Part shown: piece by piece, positions 38,285 to 51,603 of the stretch
Numbering within the stretch: position 1 is the first letter of the stretch
Layout of the letters: the number at the start of each line of letters is the position of its first letter
Source of the DNA: a virus
Taxonomy: Duplodnaviria > Caudoviricetes
Reading direction: 5' to 3' (one strand)
DNA: 64,000 nucleotides
IMG/VR virus record: IMGVR_UViG_3300030433_001804
Location: 1-64,000 of that record
Translations under genes and position numbers: made by a program
The notes under the pieces: model-generated
Told to the model about the DNA's origin: nothing
Database searches by the model: none
The model's input: only the letters and a program-made list of their open reading frames with translations

Positions 38285-39820
38285 TTATTCCTCCAATAAT
38301 ACTGCTACATCTGTAGTATAGAACAATTTTGCTATTGACATAGCAGTTAAGAAACTGTTCTTAGTTACCTTAACAGGGTCAAATATTCCTGCTACTTCCA
38401 AATCCATGTAATCACCAGTAAGGGCATTAAATCCTAAAGAACCCGCTAAATCATCATCATGCCAATTACCTTCATGATTACTATTAAGCAATAGTGTGTT
38501 ATATGGAGCGTAAAGGGAATGCGCTAAGAAATTGAAATCTGTTTCTACCTTATCACCTGCATGGGCTAATGAAGTCCCGCCACCCAAAATAATCCCTTCT
38601 GCTAATGCCGCTTTAGTAGCATTAAGAGCATCATCTAATCTCTCCTTCCTTTCTCTTAGTTCTAAGGAAGAAGAAGCACCGACCTTTATTGTTGCCACAC
38701 CACCCTTTAGTCTAGATATTCTAGATTTAATACGGGCTTTGTCGAAACCTTCCATGTCATCTAATTGACCCTTTAGAAGTTTTATTTGTTTTTCAGCATC
38801 ACCGATACCGCCAACTACAATTGTTTTTTCTTTAGTTACTGTAATGTTTTCACAACTACCAAAGTCACTTAATACAATATTAGTAGGGTCGTCTTTGCTC
38901 TCTTGAGTAAACAACTTACCATTTACTAATGATTGAATATCGGCCAATTCGTCTAGTTGTTTATCGCCAAAATTAGGTGCAAGTATGGCACAACATTCTA
39001 CCGTTTGATTCATTAGATTCATAACTAAATTATTTAGTGCTGAACCTGACATACCACCACAGAAAATAACCAGTGGCCTACTATTAGCGGAAGCCAATTC
39101 TAACATAGGAATTAAATCCTTAAAATTCTTAAAATGAATATTAGAAATAAAGATAAGAGGGTTATTGAATACAGTTCTCCCGTTAGCAGTATTGGCCATT
39201 AAATGACTAATATAGCCTTCAGTAAGTTCCATACCCTCTCTTATTACCAGTTCTGTATTATGTGATTTAGATTCTTCTACTGTAACAATACCGTCTCTAC
39301 CTACTTTAGCCAAAGCATCACTAATTAGTTTACCTAGAACTCTATCATTATTTGCCGCTATTGTAGCGACTTCAATAATATCAGCATCTTGTATTTCTTT
39401 AGCCATTGAATCTAATTGGTTTACCACTTGGTCTGTAAAATCATCAAGAAGACCCATGAATTCGTGAGTGGTTAAATCTAGGTTACTGTGATTATGTATT
39501 GCATTACAAAATGCTTGTGCTAAAATACAAGCAGTAGTAGTTCCATCACCGCTTCCTTCTTGTGCTTTATGTGCTAGGTTTTGAACCATCTGAATACCCA
39601 TCTGAACATAAGGGTCTTCGCTACTAATATGTCTTGTAATGGTTACTCCATCGTTAATAATAACAGGGGGATTACCTTGTAGTATAACCGTTTTGGCTTG
39701 TGGGCCAAGTGTAGGTTTTACTGTATTAGCAACTAAATTAATTCCTTCTAACAACTTTTCTTTTACTTCATTTCCATGTATTATCATTCTTCCACCAACC
39801 TTGTTTGTATTCCTCTCCAC
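38285..39820 (-). CDS. groEL: Group I chaperonin GroEL
   Basis: VKPTLGP, INDGVTI, GDGTTTA, VGRDGIVTVEES, APNFGD, GGVATIKVGA, DDALNATKAA, GIFDPVKV. Confidence 0.95.
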   Translation of the reverse strand: MERNTNKVGGRMIIHGNEVKEKLLEGINLVANTVKPTLGPQAKTVILQGNPPVIINDGVTITRHISSEDPYVQMGIQMVQNLAHKAQEGSGDGTTTACILAQAFCNAIHNHSNLDLTTHEFMGLLDDFTDQVVNQLDSMAKEIQDADIIEVATIAANNDRVLGKLISDALAKVGRDGIVTVEESKSHNTELVIREGMELTEGYISHLMANTANGRTVFNNPLIFISNIHFKNFKDLIPMLELASANSRPLVIFCGGMSGSALNNLVMNLMNQTVECCAILAPNFGDKQLDELADIQSLVNGKLFTQESKDDPTNIVLSDFGSCENITVTKEKTIVVGGIGDAEKQIKLLKGQLDDMEGFDKARIKSRISRLKGGVATIKVGASSSLELRERKERLDDALNATKAALAEGIILGGGTSLAHAGDKVETDFNFLAHSLYAPYNTLLLNSNHEGNWHDDDLAGSLGFNALTGDYMDLEVAGIFDPVKVTKNSFLTAMSIAKLFYTTDVAVLLEE

Positions 39821-39995: not shown

Positions 39996-40211
39996 TCATT
40001 CAATCACCGCCATTACTTGTGCTATTGGCACAAACTTATATCCATCATATTCCTGTATCGTCTTCGCTTCACTAAAGATAACAGTCTTACCAATGAGTGA
40101 TTTGTCTATTTGACAATCAATCACTTTCCCAACATTATTCTCTTTAATCATAATTCTACTTGCTGAAGATACTTCTTGCTCTACTATTACATATTCTCCT
40201 ACTGCTTTCAT
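39996..40211 (-). CDS. groES: Co-chaperonin GroES-like
   Basis: MKAVGEYVIVE...VGKVI...GKTVIFS...VMAVIE, just upstream of groEL; short mobile loop. Confidence 0.75.
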   Translation of the reverse strand: MKAVGEYVIVEQEVSSASRIMIKENNVGKVIDCQIDKSLIGKTVIFSEAKTIQEYDGYKFVPIAQVMAVIE

Positions 40212-40341: not shown

Positions 40342-40689
40342 TCATTTTCTTTCCTCCACATTTACTGAATCGCTAAACTTATCTCCTTCACTTATTGTTA
40401 TATTTACATCTTTACCTGCTGAAATTTGTATGTTATTAGACCCGGAAACTGTTTGGCTATTATTTTCCATTCGTGATTTTAACCTATCATATTCTTTTTT
40501 GAGGGCTTCATACATTTTTTCATAATTCACACTTTCTTGCTTTATTGCTTCCTCTTTTTTCTTATTTTGAGCAATAAAACTTAGATGTAATTCTTTCAAT
40601 TCTTCTGCAAAAGATTTTTCTTTTGCAGGTTCTTTAGTTTCCATCTTGGGGATTAGTATTCTTCGTTTTTGTATCCTATTGTAAGTCAT
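40342..40689 (-). CDS. Coiled-coil hypothetical protein
   Basis: In gene chain. Confidence 0.5.
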   Translation of the reverse strand: MTYNRIQKRRILIPKMETKEPAKEKSFAEELKELHLSFIAQNKKKEEAIKQESVNYEKMYEALKKEYDRLKSRMENNSQTVSGSNNIQISAGKDVNITISEGDKFSDSVNVEERK

Positions 40690-40933
40690 TCTTCCTCATC
40701 CTCTATAGGTAACGCAATCCAGCCATTAGAACCAAAAGAAGTCCAAACATTTGTTTTGTAGAATTCTTTTAGTTGCTTATCTTTCTCAGTTGGCTTTCTC
40801 CAAATTACACCTTTGTTATTTTTTTTAGTATTATTGTCATTGGGATGTCTCTCCCTATGTTCTCTAATTTTATCTGTAAGAGTCTTAGCCTCAATGACCT
40901 CAACTACTTCTGCATATTTCTTTTCTCTTTTCC

Positions 40934-41566
40934 TCACTCTTCTTCCTCTCCTTTATTCCAATCCTGAATTCTTTCTAAGTTAAATTCTTTATAGATTTTC
41001 AACTGCTTAGGTTTATCTTGATGCCAATAGCCGAAATGACCTTCGCCACCTAATACATATGCTTCAGTCATTAGAGGCTTCCATTGACTTACTGTTTTAA
41101 TATCTACACCACTAAAATAAGCACTACCAAAAGGATGAGTGTGAATCCAGCATCTAATAGGTAATTTCATTCCTATTGGTGGTTGCATACCAAATTCAAC
41201 ATAACCCGGAGAACCAGTAGTAACATAACAATTGTTTTGACTATCAATTACTACCTGCACTTCTAAATTAGGAAGGATTTCTGTTGAAGAATGCCAAATC
41301 GCATCATGAAATTTAAAATTCTTATATGCTAATTCATCAACACAGCCCCTATCTTTCCAAGCAACATCAATAGATTCAAGAGTTAAAAGAGCCTCTTGAG
41401 TCCAAGTATTCAGAATATGTTGTTCTGCCTTTTCTCTAGCCTTCTCTAAAGCCTCAAATTCTTCTTCTGCTTTAGCCCACTCCAATTCTTCGATATATCT
41501 ATCATATCCATCATCGCCATTTCTTTTCTCTTCTTCTCTTATGAACCAATCACCGCTTCTACTCAT
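40934..41566 (-). CDS. JAB/MPN+ (JAMM) metalloprotease
   Basis: LEVQVVID (catalytic Glu) and WIHTHPFGSAYFSGVD = HxH-x7-S-x2-D. Confidence 0.9.
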   Translation of the reverse strand: MSRSGDWFIREEEKRNGDDGYDRYIEELEWAKAEEEFEALEKAREKAEQHILNTWTQEALLTLESIDVAWKDRGCVDELAYKNFKFHDAIWHSSTEILPNLEVQVVIDSQNNCYVTTGSPGYVEFGMQPPIGMKLPIRCWIHTHPFGSAYFSGVDIKTVSQWKPLMTEAYVLGGEGHFGYWHQDKPKQLKIYKEFNLERIQDWNKGEEEE

Positions 41567-42576: not shown

Positions 42577-42854
42577 TAATTATTGTTTTTCCATTTTGGC
42601 AGTTGTTCTAATTGAACTTTAGCGTCTGCCCACGCTGTAAGTAATTCGCTGTCACTGTAATCTGTTCCTAATTCTTCAAACAGGTTAAGAACAGTAACTA
42701 TAACAGAACGCTCATCTTCTGTTAAACTATCTAGCAAATCCATTTTCCTTAATGACTCTAAGACATCAGGAAATATTTGTCTAAGTTTAGCAACAAAAAG
42801 ATAGGAAGCGTTATCTAAATTAGTGTGAGTTAAATCATCCCATTTAGGTATCAT
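42570..42854 (-). CDS. Hypothetical protein
   Basis: ATGA overlap with ThiF gene. Confidence 0.55.
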   Translation of the reverse strand: MIPKWDDLTHTNLDNASYLFVAKLRQIFPDVLESLRKMDLLDSLTEDERSVIVTVLNLFEELGTDYSDSELLTAWADAKVQLEQLPKWKNNNYW

Positions 42855-43417
42855 ACATTCACCACCTTAAAATCACAAACCTCTTCATCGTTAAACCAAC
42901 GCTGAATCCATTGTGCGCCCATTCCTGCAATAGCAACTTGCATGAAATGAACTCCTTTATTTGAGCCATCCCATGAATCTCCTTGACAACTAAATGACCT
43001 TTCTTCACCTGCTAACAATGTATCATACATTTTAGGGTCAGCAGTATAAGATACCATAGCCGCATTACGACCCTGCGCTCTCAAATCTAACCATTTCAAA
43101 TCTTTACAATTATACATGGTTCGCCTTAGACCTATATTATCTACACAACAAATAACTAAATCATATCCTTTCATTTGTTTTTCACTAAGAACTGGATATT
43201 GTGATGCGTTAGAAACAGAACCATAATAGGTATCTTTCATAACTACTGCTTTGTTTAAACTAACATGACCACTACCAAAATTTTGGTATGGTAAATTCTT
43301 TGTTTCTACCTTATCGGGGTCTGCTACTGTTATATCATACAATTCTACTTTATCTAAAAGCGGTATCAAGAAACTCCCAATACCACCTGCTCCAATTACT
43401 AATATTTTTCTTTTCAT
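42851..43417 (-). CDS. E1-like ThiF/MoeB-family activating enzyme
   Basis: VIGAGGIGS, DPDKVETKNLPYQ, NKA, DLVICCVDN; candidate catalytic Cys in FSCQ. Confidence 0.92.
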   Translation of the reverse strand: MKRKILVIGAGGIGSFLIPLLDKVELYDITVADPDKVETKNLPYQNFGSGHVSLNKAVVMKDTYYGSVSNASQYPVLSEKQMKGYDLVICCVDNIGLRRTMYNCKDLKWLDLRAQGRNAAMVSYTADPKMYDTLLAGEERSFSCQGDSWDGSNKGVHFMQVAIAGMGAQWIQRWFNDEEVCDFKVVNV

Positions 43418-44195: not shown

Positions 44196-44620
44196 TTATT
44201 CTTCCTCCTCAAATTCGTCACTAAATAATTCTCTTTCTGAACAGTATAATCCATCTGTTTCCAAACTATCTAGCCAATCGTTTATTCCGCAACGATATGC
44301 TATCGGGTCTACACGGTATAATACCGTAGATGGCGACCACAACATACCACAAACATCTATATCTTCATAACAATCATCTAACATTTGATTGTATCTTTCT
44401 GTTATTTCTCTTCTGTATCCATTCATTTTATTCACCATATTCTGTTTTTCTTCTTTGTGCGCCACATACTTTACAATGAGAGAATGCAACGACAACTATT
44501 TCTTTACCTATTTCATCATCCCAAAAGGTATGATAATAGTCTAAGTCCTTATCAACCCAAATATGATTACATTTAATCATGTATTCATCTTCTTCATTTA
44601 TTTCATATTCCCATCCCATT

Positions 44621-45475
44621 TTACTCACCTAATTTGTTCAGTTCTTTTCCTTTAATTTCTTTCAAAGACTCTACACCTAATAGTGTAAGTAAGTTCTTAC
44701 ATTCTTTACCTATCTTAGTTCTATGGAATCCTGTTTGTTCAGATATGAACTTACAAGAATATCCTCTAACAAATATGGTAGAGGCTAATACACATATAGC
44801 CGCATAATAACATCTAGACTTATTGAAGTTACTATTTACGATTAGCGTCTCAAACTTCTGCATTACTTTATTACACTGATGTATGAACTGTGGTTCATCG
44901 GTTATCTTTCTAGCAGTTTGCTGAATAAGATAGGAACTATCATCTATAGAATAATGTATGGAGTTACGATAGAACTGATTTATTTTTCTAATTAGTTTTT
45001 TAGTTCTATTTAGTTTAACATCAAATTCTTTCGCAACATCTTTGAGAGGGTGTGGTGTTCTATTTTCTTTTAGAAGATAGTAAACAATAGCGGTTGCTCT
45101 TTCTTCTAAGGTAAAGTTCCTAAGTGTATGGCTATTGTATAATTCTAAATACACTTTTTGTATTCTTTCTGTAAGATTGATTGGTAGTCTTAGATTAGCC
45201 ATAACCATATTACAATGAGTAATGCCATTGATAACATTTCTCGGCAATACTGGATTGTGTCTATTATATTTAGAAGCACCTTTACCTGTTACCAAAGACC
45301 CTAATCTGCCTTTATCAGCACTGTGCTTTAGTGAATAGTTATCTCCTCTTTCTACTGGATTAACCGTTTCTTCAAACATACCTGTTATGATAACTAAACC
45401 ACATTCAGCACAACACTTCTCTCCTAGCCTCTCATCAAAGGTTATTTCTATCGAACCACATTCTTTACATTTCAT
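44621..45475 (-). CDS. tfb: Transcription initiation factor B (TFIIB/TFB-like)
   Basis: N-terminal Zn ribbon CKECGS...DERLGEKCCAECGLVI, then two cyclin-like repeats. Likely start ATG 45475. Confidence 0.85.
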   Translation of the reverse strand: MKCKECGSIEITFDERLGEKCCAECGLVIITGMFEETVNPVERGDNYSLKHSADKGRLGSLVTGKGASKYNRHNPVLPRNVINGITHCNMVMANLRLPINLTERIQKVYLELYNSHTLRNFTLEERATAIVYYLLKENRTPHPLKDVAKEFDVKLNRTKKLIRKINQFYRNSIHYSIDDSSYLIQQTARKITDEPQFIHQCNKVMQKFETLIVNSNFNKSRCYYAAICVLASTIFVRGYSCKFISEQTGFHRTKIGKECKNLLTLLGVESLKEIKGKELNKLGE

Positions 45476-46631
45476 TAAAATCAACTCTATATTCATTGGC
45501 ATCTGCGACAATATATCGCTTTATTGTATTCACTATTGTTATTGTAAAAGTATCATTGAGTAGGGCTAACGCTCTAGCAGCAAATTGGTCGCCTAATGGA
45601 GAACCTTTAGACATATTATCTATGCATATCGGGCCTTGCCATTTAGGATTATTTACTATCTTTATTTCTTCGCCCGTTGGTTCTCCTTCATCATTGAGAA
45701 CCTTTTCAAAAGAAACAACTGGTTGCCAAATATAAGTAGAAACCATTTGAATATCTGATTTATACCTATTATTTTCTAACATCCAATCAAATTCTTTTCC
45801 ATGAATATAGATACGATGTAAAGTATCTTCTTCATATTCTGCTTTGAGTCTCTTAGGATGTTGTGCTAGCAAGTCATTAACTAATTGTATTGCTCGCCTC
45901 TCAACTAAATCTTTCATTCTATTCTGTTTCAAAAACTCTATCATAACTTTGAGTTCAGAATCTAATGGTTCTCTATCCATTGTCATAGAATATAATTTTC
46001 TAGGAGAGATAAATTTCAGTTTACTTCTTTTTTTACCTTCTACGAGAAAGGAACATAACTTATCCATTGTCTTTAATGGCATTGTTCCCCAAACACCGTC
46101 TGCTATTTCTATAGCGACTTCATCTGTTCCTATCATTTGAACAGGTAGTCTAACATCATATTTAGTTTCATATTCGTGAAAAGTAAACGGTAGTCTATTT
46201 TCTAGAACATATTTAATATTTTCAGGAATCGCTAAAGTATTGTAAAGCCCTAATAATAACTTAGAAGCATCTTTTTCAAAGCAAGACTTGTATGTTACTC
46301 TTGCCAAAGCGTGACAAACAGTAGATAGACTTTCTGCTTTACCATTAATATAATATCTATTCTTTCTTTTTTCTATAGCAACAGGGCAACTACCTATCAT
46401 AATAACGGCATTGTAATCACCGTGTTTTGGCATAGAAAAATAACTACTTCCTCTTGATTTAGTAGAAAGAGACGCATTCCAAAAGGAAACTAATCCACCA
46501 TGTATAGGGTCTTTAGCACTTCTATCGTATGTAATAGAGGTTTCATCCCCGACAATTCTTGCTCTTTCGCTTTTTATTTCTGTAAAATAGTATTCGCTAC
46601 TGTCGTTTGGTTTCTTTATTTTTAATTTCAT
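45465..46631 (-). CDS. Hypothetical protein with possible E2/UBC-like C-terminal catalytic motif
   Basis: NNPKWQGPICIDNM resembles the E2 active site G-x-I-C-L-D; lies between Ubl and E1 genes. Confidence 0.4.
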   Translation of the reverse strand: MKLKIKKPNDSSEYYFTEIKSERARIVGDETSITYDRSAKDPIHGGLVSFWNASLSTKSRGSSYFSMPKHGDYNAVIMIGSCPVAIEKRKNRYYINGKAESLSTVCHALARVTYKSCFEKDASKLLLGLYNTLAIPENIKYVLENRLPFTFHEYETKYDVRLPVQMIGTDEVAIEIADGVWGTMPLKTMDKLCSFLVEGKKRSKLKFISPRKLYSMTMDREPLDSELKVMIEFLKQNRMKDLVERRAIQLVNDLLAQHPKRLKAEYEEDTLHRIYIHGKEFDWMLENNRYKSDIQMVSTYIWQPVVSFEKVLNDEGEPTGEEIKIVNNPKWQGPICIDNMSKGSPLGDQFAARALALLNDTFTITIVNTIKRYIVADANEYRVDFNEM

Positions 46632-46635
46632 TATC

Positions 46636-46797
46636 TCACATCATATACATATTGGTATTATCAACATTACATCTATCATGTATTTCATTTTTAATTTCTT
46701 CAGCAGTCAATAACTGACCGCCACAAACCCTACATCGGGTCGCTATACGCATGTTTTTTCTTGTGTTGATTTCATATTGGGGATTCTTTTCTTTCAT
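46636..46797 (-). CDS. Small Zn-finger protein (53 aa)
   Basis: ...RCRVCGGQLLTAEEIKNEIHDRC... (CxxC...HxxC) read from sequence. Confidence 0.6.
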   Translation of the reverse strand: MKEKNPQYEINTRKNMRIATRCRVCGGQLLTAEEIKNEIHDRCNVDNTNMYMM

Positions 46798-46824: not shown

Positions 46825-46866
46825 GGGGGGAAAAGCATTATGAGAGATGTGGTGGCTTTTCCCCCC
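46825..46866 (-). promoter_or_regulatory. Perfect 12-bp hairpin downstream of Ubl gene
   Basis: GGGGGGAAAAGC (46825-36) / GCTTTTCCCCCC (46855-66). Confidence 0.7.
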
Positions 46867-46890: not shown

Positions 46891-47097
46891 TCAAAGACTT
46901 CCTCCAACAATAGCCGGAGTTAAATCTACAGATGTTACATCGTCCCAATTTATATTTGCTATCTCTTCTCTTGCCACCATTTCACTGTCAATAAATACCC
47001 AATGTGTTGGGTGAGTGTTGATTTGCTCAATGACTTCACTGCTTTCCATCACTACTTCTGTGTGTCCTGTTTCATTCAAAATTCTTAACTTAATCAT
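46891..47097 (-). CDS. Ubiquitin-like beta-grasp protein (ThiS/MoaD/SAMP-like) ending GG-SL
   Basis: 68 aa; MIKLRIL, WVFIDSEMV, SVDLTPAIVGG match beta-grasp strands and diglycine, followed by SL then stop. Confidence 0.8.
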   Translation of the reverse strand: MIKLRILNETGHTEVVMESSEVIEQINTHPTHWVFIDSEMVAREEIANINWDDVTSVDLTPAIVGGSL

Positions 47098-48533: not shown

Positions 48534-48933
48534 AAAGACTTTCCACTTCCTTCTCTAATTCTTGAATTCTTGTATGTAATATACTAATCTGTTTCTGTTG
48601 TTTTTCTCTTAGTTCTCTAAGTTTCTTTTCGTGTTCCCTTAGATATTTGTCTAATTTATCATTAAACATCTTTTCTAAATCTGTAGGCATCATGTGTTGT
48701 AACATTGTATTTACTTTCATTTCTACTTGATAAGCAAAATCATATCTCTCTAAAGCATCTAGTCTTTTTTCTATAGAAAGAATAACATTGTTCTGTTTGT
48801 TCTCACTTCTTCTAATAGCGATATCTTGCTTTTTATCCATCCAACAAGTCCTACACCTATTTTCATTAGTAGAAGTAGACATTGTATGAAATGGTTTCTT
48901 GCATTGCACACAGTTCTTTACAATACCACTCAT
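48526..48933 (-). CDS. Zn-finger/coiled-coil protein
   Basis: CVQC...CRTC. Confidence 0.55.
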   Translation of the reverse strand: MSGIVKNCVQCKKPFHTMSTSTNENRCRTCWMDKKQDIAIRRSENKQNNVILSIEKRLDALERYDFAYQVEMKVNTMLQHMMPTDLEKMFNDKLDKYLREHEKKLRELREKQQKQISILHTRIQELEKEVESLYG

Positions 48934-49193
48934 TATTCATCACCTAGATACATCATATCTTGTTGGTCTTGCTTCTCAAACGCCCTTTGTTCACTTAGGA
49001 AACTATTTAGAACCATATCCATCTTTTCTTGTAGATTTTCTATGATTCCTGCAATCAACCTTCTGTTTAGACTTATCCAAATCTTGTGATAAGTGTTCAA
49101 AACTACTTTTGGTTGGTCATCATCATTGTAAGAAATAATGATTGGGGGCATTGTGCTATCATCTACTATTCTAAATTCTACTTCTGTTTTCAT
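48933..49193 (-). CDS. Hypothetical protein
   Basis: In gene chain. Confidence 0.55.
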   Translation of the reverse strand: MKTEVEFRIVDDSTMPPIIISYNDDDQPKVVLNTYHKIWISLNRRLIAGIIENLQEKMDMVLNSFLSEQRAFEKQDQQDMMYLGDE

Positions 49194-50474: not shown

Positions 50475-51603
50475 TTAATTCCACTCCCTATTTTTTCTTG
50501 CGTTGCGTTCAACTTCATCTGCCTCGCTGATTAGCCAATTTAGAACGGTTAATTCTTTTTTCCAATCATCACCATGTTGTTCATTTTCTTCCAAGAAGTC
50601 CATTACTTTTCTAAGGCTATCTTTTATTTCATGGCTATTCATTCTTCCTCACCTGCTAATTCATCATAAAATTTCATGGCTTGAGTCCAATAGGTGCATG
50701 TTATAGTCAATTCACTTCTATTAACTTCCCATGTAGTTCTATCACCTCTAACTCTATTAGCCACTCTTTCTTTGTAAAACAACATCATAGATGCTGAATC
50801 TTCAAAGATATATTTTTCTTTCATGGCGATTGTTCCATCGTCATATATTGTATTTCCAAATTCTCTTTTTGTTTTATAATTTATTTTCATTCTTTCATTC
50901 TCCTTATTGATATTTGGTATGCATTATAGTGCGGCATACCCAATGTAACTAATTCCTTACATATTCTTTTTCTTGTCTGCTCATGTTCGTAATCTCGATT
51001 CAAAAACTCCGGCTTGTATTGTCGGTGGTTTTCCTTCGGGATTATATCTCTCATTAATTTCTTCATAACAACCATCACATATTCTAATTAATATTTTATT
51101 ATCTACTTCTTCTAGTTTCATAGTTTTAAACTCAATGAGCATATGAAACTTGGCTCCTAAGCCACATATTTCACACTTAGGAGTCTGTGTTTTTTCTTCT
51201 CTAACGAAGAATCTTTTAATCCAATTTATCATTTTTTTTCACCTCTTAAATTGCGGGAAACGGAAGGAAGCGCATGATAAACTCCCTTAGCCTAAGAACA
51301 CCAAGCCCCAAGAGGTATTTTGTCCGTTATTACTGCTAAACCCGTATTTCCATAAGGAATCTAATATTAAATTCTTTCATCCCTAAACTTTTGATAAGCC
51401 ATATCTTCTGCATCTGCTTTGATAGCCTCTAAGTCTCTCCAACCATATCTATCATAGGCTATGTCTTCACATATTTCTATTGCTAAATCATCATTTTCAC
51501 CTAATAGTTCTGCTAGTAAATCTAGCAGTTCTTCTTGCGAAAGGTGAAACTTTAACATATCAAATAGCGACTTAAATCCACAAAACTCTAACATCTCTTC
51601 CAT

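Follow-up and report, generated by a model that had tools for sequence, protein, structure and literature searches.

The 64-kb window analysed here comes from a complete virus record of 96,385 bp (IMGVR_UViG_3300030433_001804), and our subject is T388, a 388-aa protein encoded on its minus strand (45465..46631, with the stop codon at 45465–45467) which we consider as a candidate ubiquitin-conjugating (E2) enzyme. The virus has a GC content of ~34% and encodes a tail tube protein, a family-B DNA polymerase, an ATP-dependent DNA ligase, a Cpn60-type chaperonin and a TFIIB-like factor, and T388 homologues are located on marine metagenomic viral contigs of ~90–100 kb. Magroviruses are abundant tailed viruses linked to the marine archaea Poseidoniales. 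They have been described as viruses of Marine Group II/Poseidoniales which also carry chaperonins in their replicative cluster (PMC5434244), and the gene content and marine homologues of our virus agree with these descriptions, fitting a magrovirus-like virus.

The first-pass annotation of this DNA had described the T388 open reading frame as unannotated, with a UBC-like cysteine motif near the C-terminus preceded by ~250 residues of no recognisable motif, and as the first large gene after a ubiquitin-like modifier (Ubl), and all of this was borne out. No family match was found for T388 in Pfam, PHROGs, NCBIfam or PADLOC, including the N-terminal residues 1–237 (45921..46631), which are modelled as two α+β domains (pLDDT, the predicted local distance difference test score, of 92). 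The C-terminal domain (residues 238–388; 45468..45920) is predicted to be UBC-like, that is E2-like, and carries the motif GPICIDNM (residues 333–340; 45612..45635) followed by ...RALALLND, with Cys336 (codon 45624–45626) as the candidate active-site cysteine. Only a 53-aa protein with a CxxC...HxxC zinc-finger motif (46636..46797), 4 nt upstream of T388, stands between it and the Ubl gene (46891..47097), both of these also being on the minus strand.

A word-index search of metagenomic proteins recovered 404 T388 homologues, mostly ~50% identical across their full length, and because of this we regard the gene as real and under strong selection; an exhaustive search of cluster representatives extended the relatives to 166 clusters with identities down to ~21%. 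Residues W331, G333, P334, I335, C336, I337, D338, N339 and M340 are invariant in the 55 close homologues. Invariance of the cysteine among homologues had been proposed earlier as a check, and Cys336 is present in 91/92 diverse representatives with identities down to ~21%, the sole exception (P0180) having an aberrant C-terminus. The family motif can be written as G-[PS]-I-C-[IV]-D-[NQ]-x(3-6)-S-x-G-D-Q-x3-R-x5-N-D. The first ~80 residues of T388 are variable among homologues, and residues 137–238 hold many which are near-invariant and polar (N145, E175, W181 and Q236-N237-R238). No conserved histidine was found anywhere in the homologue alignments, which speaks against a Cys–His protease, and we disfavour this role for T388.

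The family looks virus-restricted in these comparisons. Among 185,579 species genomes (GTDB), a T388 homologue was found on one 1.9-kb contig only, in a Balneolaceae metagenome-assembled genome, and this is probably a mis-binned viral fragment. BFVD holds three full-length relatives without names, a tblastn search of a phage GenBank collection gave no match to T388, and a homologue search with the C-terminal domain alone returned the T388 family with no annotated relatives. An apparent stand-alone C-terminal form of 154 aa (P0299) is preceded on its scaffold by an uncalled 866-nt stretch; we set it aside as a true split gene and take it to be an assembly or gene-calling artefact.

An AlphaFold2 model of T388 built with a 55-sequence alignment has a pLDDT of 86 and a predicted template modelling score (pTM) of 0.49, this low pTM being consistent with a multidomain protein. 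In the C-terminal domain the model places a helix (239–257), three strands (262–267, 270–277 and 282–287) and a long hairpin (297–312/318–335), the tip of which varies in length among homologues, followed by Cys336 and then further helices (346–358, 360–366 and 368–371). The core layout of UBC domains, with an N-terminal helix, antiparallel sheet, crossover helix and C-terminal helices, is thus found in the model, and Cys336 is positioned after strand 318–335 and before helix 346–358, i.e. in the stretch joining the last strand to the counterpart of helix α2, its place in E2s. Comparison of this domain with UBC folds had been suggested at the outset, and an open fold search with residues 238–388 returned matches exclusively to UBC-superfamily domains, including UBE2O and FANCL. 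Foldseek searches of PDB found nothing at E ≤ 0.001 with either T388 model, E2 rows appearing only at E ~0.2–0.4 and BRCC45 of BRISC as the rank-2 row. For the N-terminal 237 residues, fold searches gave weak and mixed structural matches only and no recognisable fold. We consider that residues 238–388 quite probably adopt a UBC-like fold.

The C-terminal domain was also compared with canonical E2s by hhalign, using a 37-sequence alignment of the T388 domain (A6) and 35 E2s from giant-virus contigs (A7) which had been fetched by a back-translated HPN-x4-G-x-ICLDIL pattern. The two alignments were collinear, with helix placed on helix, the conserved sheet tryptophan on W283 and GPICIDNM on GxICLDIL, and Cys336 was paired with the catalytic cysteine. 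The score of 21.9 (P 0.012, probability 3.6%) was reached by 0/200 column shuffles (mean 12.6, sd 2.6, max 20.9), and reversed or unrelated alignments scored 10.8–13.5. We regard this profile match as supportive but not proof of a relationship. The nearest neighbours of the domain in ESM features include clusters partly annotated as Prok-E2_D (0.78) and E2-CBASS (0.76), both of which are below the reliability threshold and serve as a lead only.

The neighbouring genes include candidates for the other components of a conjugation operon. The Ubl candidate is a 68-aa protein ending in PAIVGG-SL, and is 67–87% identical across loci; PAIVGG is invariant and is followed by 0–2 variable residues, which fits a modifier that is trimmed back to its GG and then conjugated. 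The nearest ESM-feature clusters of the Ubl consist of 140–170-aa Thermoplasmatota proteins (scores 0.83–0.89), one of them partly annotated as ThiS, and this hints at capture from the host lineage. A minimal ThiF-type adenylating (E1-like) enzyme of 188 aa (42851..43417, minus strand; Pfam ThiF 6.9e-14, and a match to the E1 part of PADLOC E1-E2 models) keeps the GxGxxG, D-x-D...N-L-x-Y-Q and C-x-D-N motifs across homologues, and Cys144, within SFSCQG, is invariant. A JAB/JAMM metalloprotease candidate of 210 aa (40934..41566, minus strand) has a weak Pfam Prok-JAB match, and its homologues retain the E...HxH...S..D motif.

Gene neighbourhoods were examined in 80 IMG/VR loci anchored on T388, with genes found by blastp. 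A TFB/TFIIB-like gene was present in 80/80 loci, the E1 and zinc-finger genes each in 77/80, JAB in 76/80, Cpn60 in 74/80 and the Ubl in 72/80, with the missing genes largely explained by incomplete contigs, and the zinc-finger gene, where present, was always directly upstream of T388. When loci were anchored on the E1 instead, T388 was upstream in 58/58 of those with enough upstream sequence. A distant clade (P0229 and P0240), in which T388 is ~22% identical, has the genes for T388, a shortened TFB-like protein and a ThiF of 183 aa overlapping as one operon with JAB, Ubl and Cpn60 nearby; the zinc finger was not found directly upstream of T388 in this clade. A GG-ended Ubl, a ThiF-type E1 with its cysteine and a JAMM-motif peptidase are therefore co-located with T388 in 72–80 of the 80 loci as well as in the distant clade. 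The score of a predicted complex of E1, Ubl and T388 was 0.75, and was 0.71 when the E1 was swapped for an unrelated protein; we read it neither as evidence of binding nor as evidence against it.

From the modelled fold, the conserved cysteine and this setting, we favour T388 as a working E2-type Ubl carrier, with a divergent UBC-like C-terminal domain and Cys336 as the active site, and give this a probability of roughly 0.5. In the scheme we infer, which covers every catalytic step, what the N-terminal domains do and which proteins are targeted, the JAB protease would trim the 0–2 residues beyond the GG of the Ubl, and the minimal E1 would adenylate the Ubl C-terminus, probably holding the Ubl on Cys144. 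The Ubl would then be handed to Cys336 of T388 as a thioester, and T388 would move it onto lysines of viral or host targets. The conserved N-terminal domains may act as a built-in substrate- or partner-binding module, possibly replacing an E3, and T388 is possibly an E2/E3 hybrid.

A number of observations weigh against an active E2. We know of archaeal SAMP/UbaA systems which conjugate without any E2, and therefore the gene context does not require one. All of the loci belong to one syntenic virus lineage, and so the co-occurrence of these genes is weak evidence that they work together, suggestive but not independent. The first-pass annotation had proposed a divergent E2, and the predicted fold and the placement of Cys336 on the catalytic cysteine agree with this, whereas matches to E2 hidden Markov models (HMMs) and the HPN motif do not appear. 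UQ_con (PF00179) does not match T388 or its 92 homologues at E values up to 1, or anything else in the whole virus genome; T388 is not matched by Prok-E2_A-E or E2-CBASS (Pfam), NCBIfam or the PADLOC Cap2 E1-E2 models; the HMM libraries gave nothing consistent for the C-terminal domain and the 92 homologues; and PDB sequence searches (profile and single domain) yielded chance-level matches only. The homologue alignments have no HPN motif ~10 residues upstream of the cysteine and no conserved histidine or asparagine there, and the residues conserved after the cysteine (S-x-G-D-Q, R353 and N359-D360) are unlike those of classical E2s. The hhalign probability is also low, and the canonical E2 set had been chosen by its cysteine motif, which favours a match. 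With this motif removed, the N-terminal part was aligned in the same register but 17/150 shuffles reached its score, and the sequence signal is therefore essentially an active-site motif in the right place. It should be noted that E2-like families lacking the HPN histidine have been documented in prokaryotic Ubl/E1/JAB operons (PMC1779556), because of which the missing HPN is not disqualifying, and that the Bub E2s use oxyesters (PMC11601596).

The alternative that fares best is that T388 is UBC- or RWD-like but forms no thioester, acting instead as an adaptor or regulator in the manner of UEV, RWD or FANCL-type domains and perhaps binding the Ubl, the E1 or the TFB-like factor, with Cys336 having a structural role or other chemistry. 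In the open fold search the predicted fold indeed resembles RWD/UEV domains as much as E2s. Such non-catalytic UBC-like domains characteristically lack the active-site cysteine, whereas in T388 it is near-invariant and lies in a G-x-I-C-[IV]-D motif mirroring that of E2s, and we therefore consider this explanation unlikely. We are more doubtful still that T388 is unconnected with the Ubl and serves as an accessory factor of transcription or replication, expressed together with the zinc-finger and TFB-like proteins, for which the UBC-like match would reflect a common α+β arrangement and the linkage to E1, JAB and Ubl the inherited synteny of a magrovirus replicative module. The fold matches for residues 238–388 come exclusively from the UBC superfamily rather than from a mixture of folds, Cys336 aligns with the catalytic cysteine in the hhalign comparison, and the T388, TFB-like and ThiF genes overlap as one operon in the distant clade. 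It is very improbable that the Ubl carries sulfur in the manner of ThiS, MoaD or SAMP, with T388 as a sulfur acceptor or sulfurtransferase acting through Cys336, as although the E1 is a minimal ThiF/MoeB-type enzyme, the nearest named feature clusters of the Ubl are ThiS-like and archaeal (score 0.83, a lead only) and T388 has a single invariant cysteine, the fold search returned UBC-superfamily domains alone and the JAB protease and variable tails after the GG fit processing and deconjugation.

Two further roles for T388 were rejected. A capsid or structural protein had been suggested by the ~50% identity across genomes, but there was no capsid-like fold match and the gene is in a replicative/proteostasis module, and a TBP-like factor, suggested by the TFB neighbour, found no TBP match in the open fold search.

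The TFB-like gene (44621..45511, minus strand; Zn_Ribbon_TF 1.5e-6 in Pfam and TFIIB 6.4e-8 in NCBIfam) is immediately downstream of T388, and this gene is always found between T388 and the E1 (44621–45511 in the window, L084:11418-11987 and L081:1397-2017). Its distant-clade form is reduced to ~190–206 aa and overlaps both neighbours. The connection of the TFB-like gene with the Ubl module may be functional as well as positional. The zinc-finger neighbour has four zinc ligands only, and no RING was seen. In the distant clade its position directly upstream of T388 is taken by an 86-aa protein of no assigned function, encoded in the window at 48933–49193 (minus strand) and kept in 68/80 loci. 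A 12-bp perfect hairpin (G6A4GC/GCT4C6) with an 18-nt loop (46825..46866, minus strand; dG -22.3 kcal/mol, z -4.9) stands between the Ubl gene and the zinc-finger and T388 genes with no T-run after it, and could separate the Ubl transcript from the enzyme genes.

The Cpn60 gene (38285–39820, minus strand) is adjoined by a 71-aa GroES-like gene (39996–40211, minus strand) kept in 58/80 loci. In the paper that first described magroviruses, the viral chaperonin had been expected to act without a co-chaperonin (PMC5434244). Glutamate-rich protein ends are common between 38000 and 51000, including JAB (...GEEEE) and the open reading frames at 40686–40937 (...DEEE), 44196–44495 (...EEEE) and 50639–50890 (...GEEE), and JAB homologues of other loci likewise end in EEE. 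At the end of the JAB gene (40934–40950, minus strand) the GGAGAGGAAGAAGAG codons and the start of the following gene overlap, and therefore the EEE tails look like Shine-Dalgarno-type sites embedded within the upstream coding sequence and not like a protein signal. We also note that one record, IMGVR_UViG_3300021958_000021 (184,733 bp; L007 and L070), carries the entire T388 module twice. The two copies differ and lie ~91 kb apart, their T388 proteins having 51% and 42% identity to that of the window, and the contig looks like an assembly in which two magrovirus genomes were joined.

No literature combining magroviruses, Aoguangviridae or Poseidoniales viruses with ubiquitin was found in the searchable literature, and the magrovirus genomics papers examined do not mention ubiquitin, ThiF, MoeB or JAB; the Ubl/E1/JAB/T388 module therefore appears to be undescribed there. 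Taking these genes together, we tentatively suggest that magroviruses may encode a complete Ubl cascade of their own, made up of a mini-Ubl, a 188-aa E1, a new E2 family with target-binding domains and JAB, which would tag host or viral proteins such as the transcription machinery. The cascade genes are embedded with the viral TFB and the chaperonin pair, and in Haloferax the transcription factor TBP2 is a known target of Ubl modification and is subject to proteasomal turnover (PMC4895103). A link between the TFB neighbour and modification of the TBP2 type is speculation by analogy.

Outside the eukaryotes, Ubl conjugation has so far been recognised in a few systems of archaea and in anti-phage operons of bacteria. 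If our reading of T388 and its neighbours is right, a cascade encoded by one of the most abundant groups of archaeal viruses in the ocean would be a new player and work in a new direction, that of virus on host. It would mirror the Bil, CBASS and Bub systems of bacteria, which hosts turn against phages. It would also reveal an E2-like family invisible to sequence methods, which bears on the diversification of the E2 fold before the eukaryotes.

Compared with canonical eukaryotic and giant-virus E2s, T388 shares the G-x-I-C-[LI]-D motif with the cysteine in the same place and, as predicted, the α1/β-sheet/Cys loop/α2–4 topology, aligned end to end. It differs in having no HMM-detectable similarity and no HPN, in the long and length-variable β-hairpin just before the cysteine, in the replacement of the W-S-P-A-L region by a conserved S-x-G-D-Q...R...N-D block, and in the fusion of the UBC-like domain behind ~237 residues of no recognisable fold. 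Prokaryotic Ubl/E1/E2/JAB operons were predicted by Iyer et al. 2006 (PMC1779556), and were subsequently studied as Bil (10.1101/2023.09.26.559546), CBASS Cap2/Cap3 (PMC10097602) and Bub (PMC11601596). The magrovirus set shares with these operons a Gly-ended Ubl, a ThiF-type E1, a JAB peptidase and an E2-like protein without the classical histidine, and the PADLOC models whose E1 part is matched by the viral E1 are those of Cap2. However, the operons are bacterial and the characterised ones serve in anti-phage defence whereas the magrovirus genes belong to a virus of archaea, none of the E2 models for those operons matches T388, the viral E1 is just 188 aa long, and the viral cluster includes a TFB-like gene and a chaperonin pair.

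Amongst archaeal systems, SAMP/UbaA/HvJAMM1 (PMC4443979, PMC4895103) resembles the viral set in its small β-grasp modifier ending in GG, ThiF-type E1 and JAMM protease, but SAMPylation has no known E2 whereas the viral cluster has T388 as a candidate. The E1/E2/RING systems of Caldiarchaeum and Asgard archaea (PMC3082918, PMC5654768) are likewise Ubl cascades with an E2 in archaea-associated genomes, but their E2s are recognisable UQ_con members accompanied by a RING E3, and T388 differs from them on both counts. E2/E3 hybrids and multi-UBC-like proteins (UBE2O, FANCL and BRCC45) are similar to T388 in having a UBC-like domain inside a larger protein, but show no similarity to it in their non-UBC parts. 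Set beside all of these, T388 is best classed as a new family of the UBC-like superfamily that stands apart in sequence, and one found in an unusual setting.
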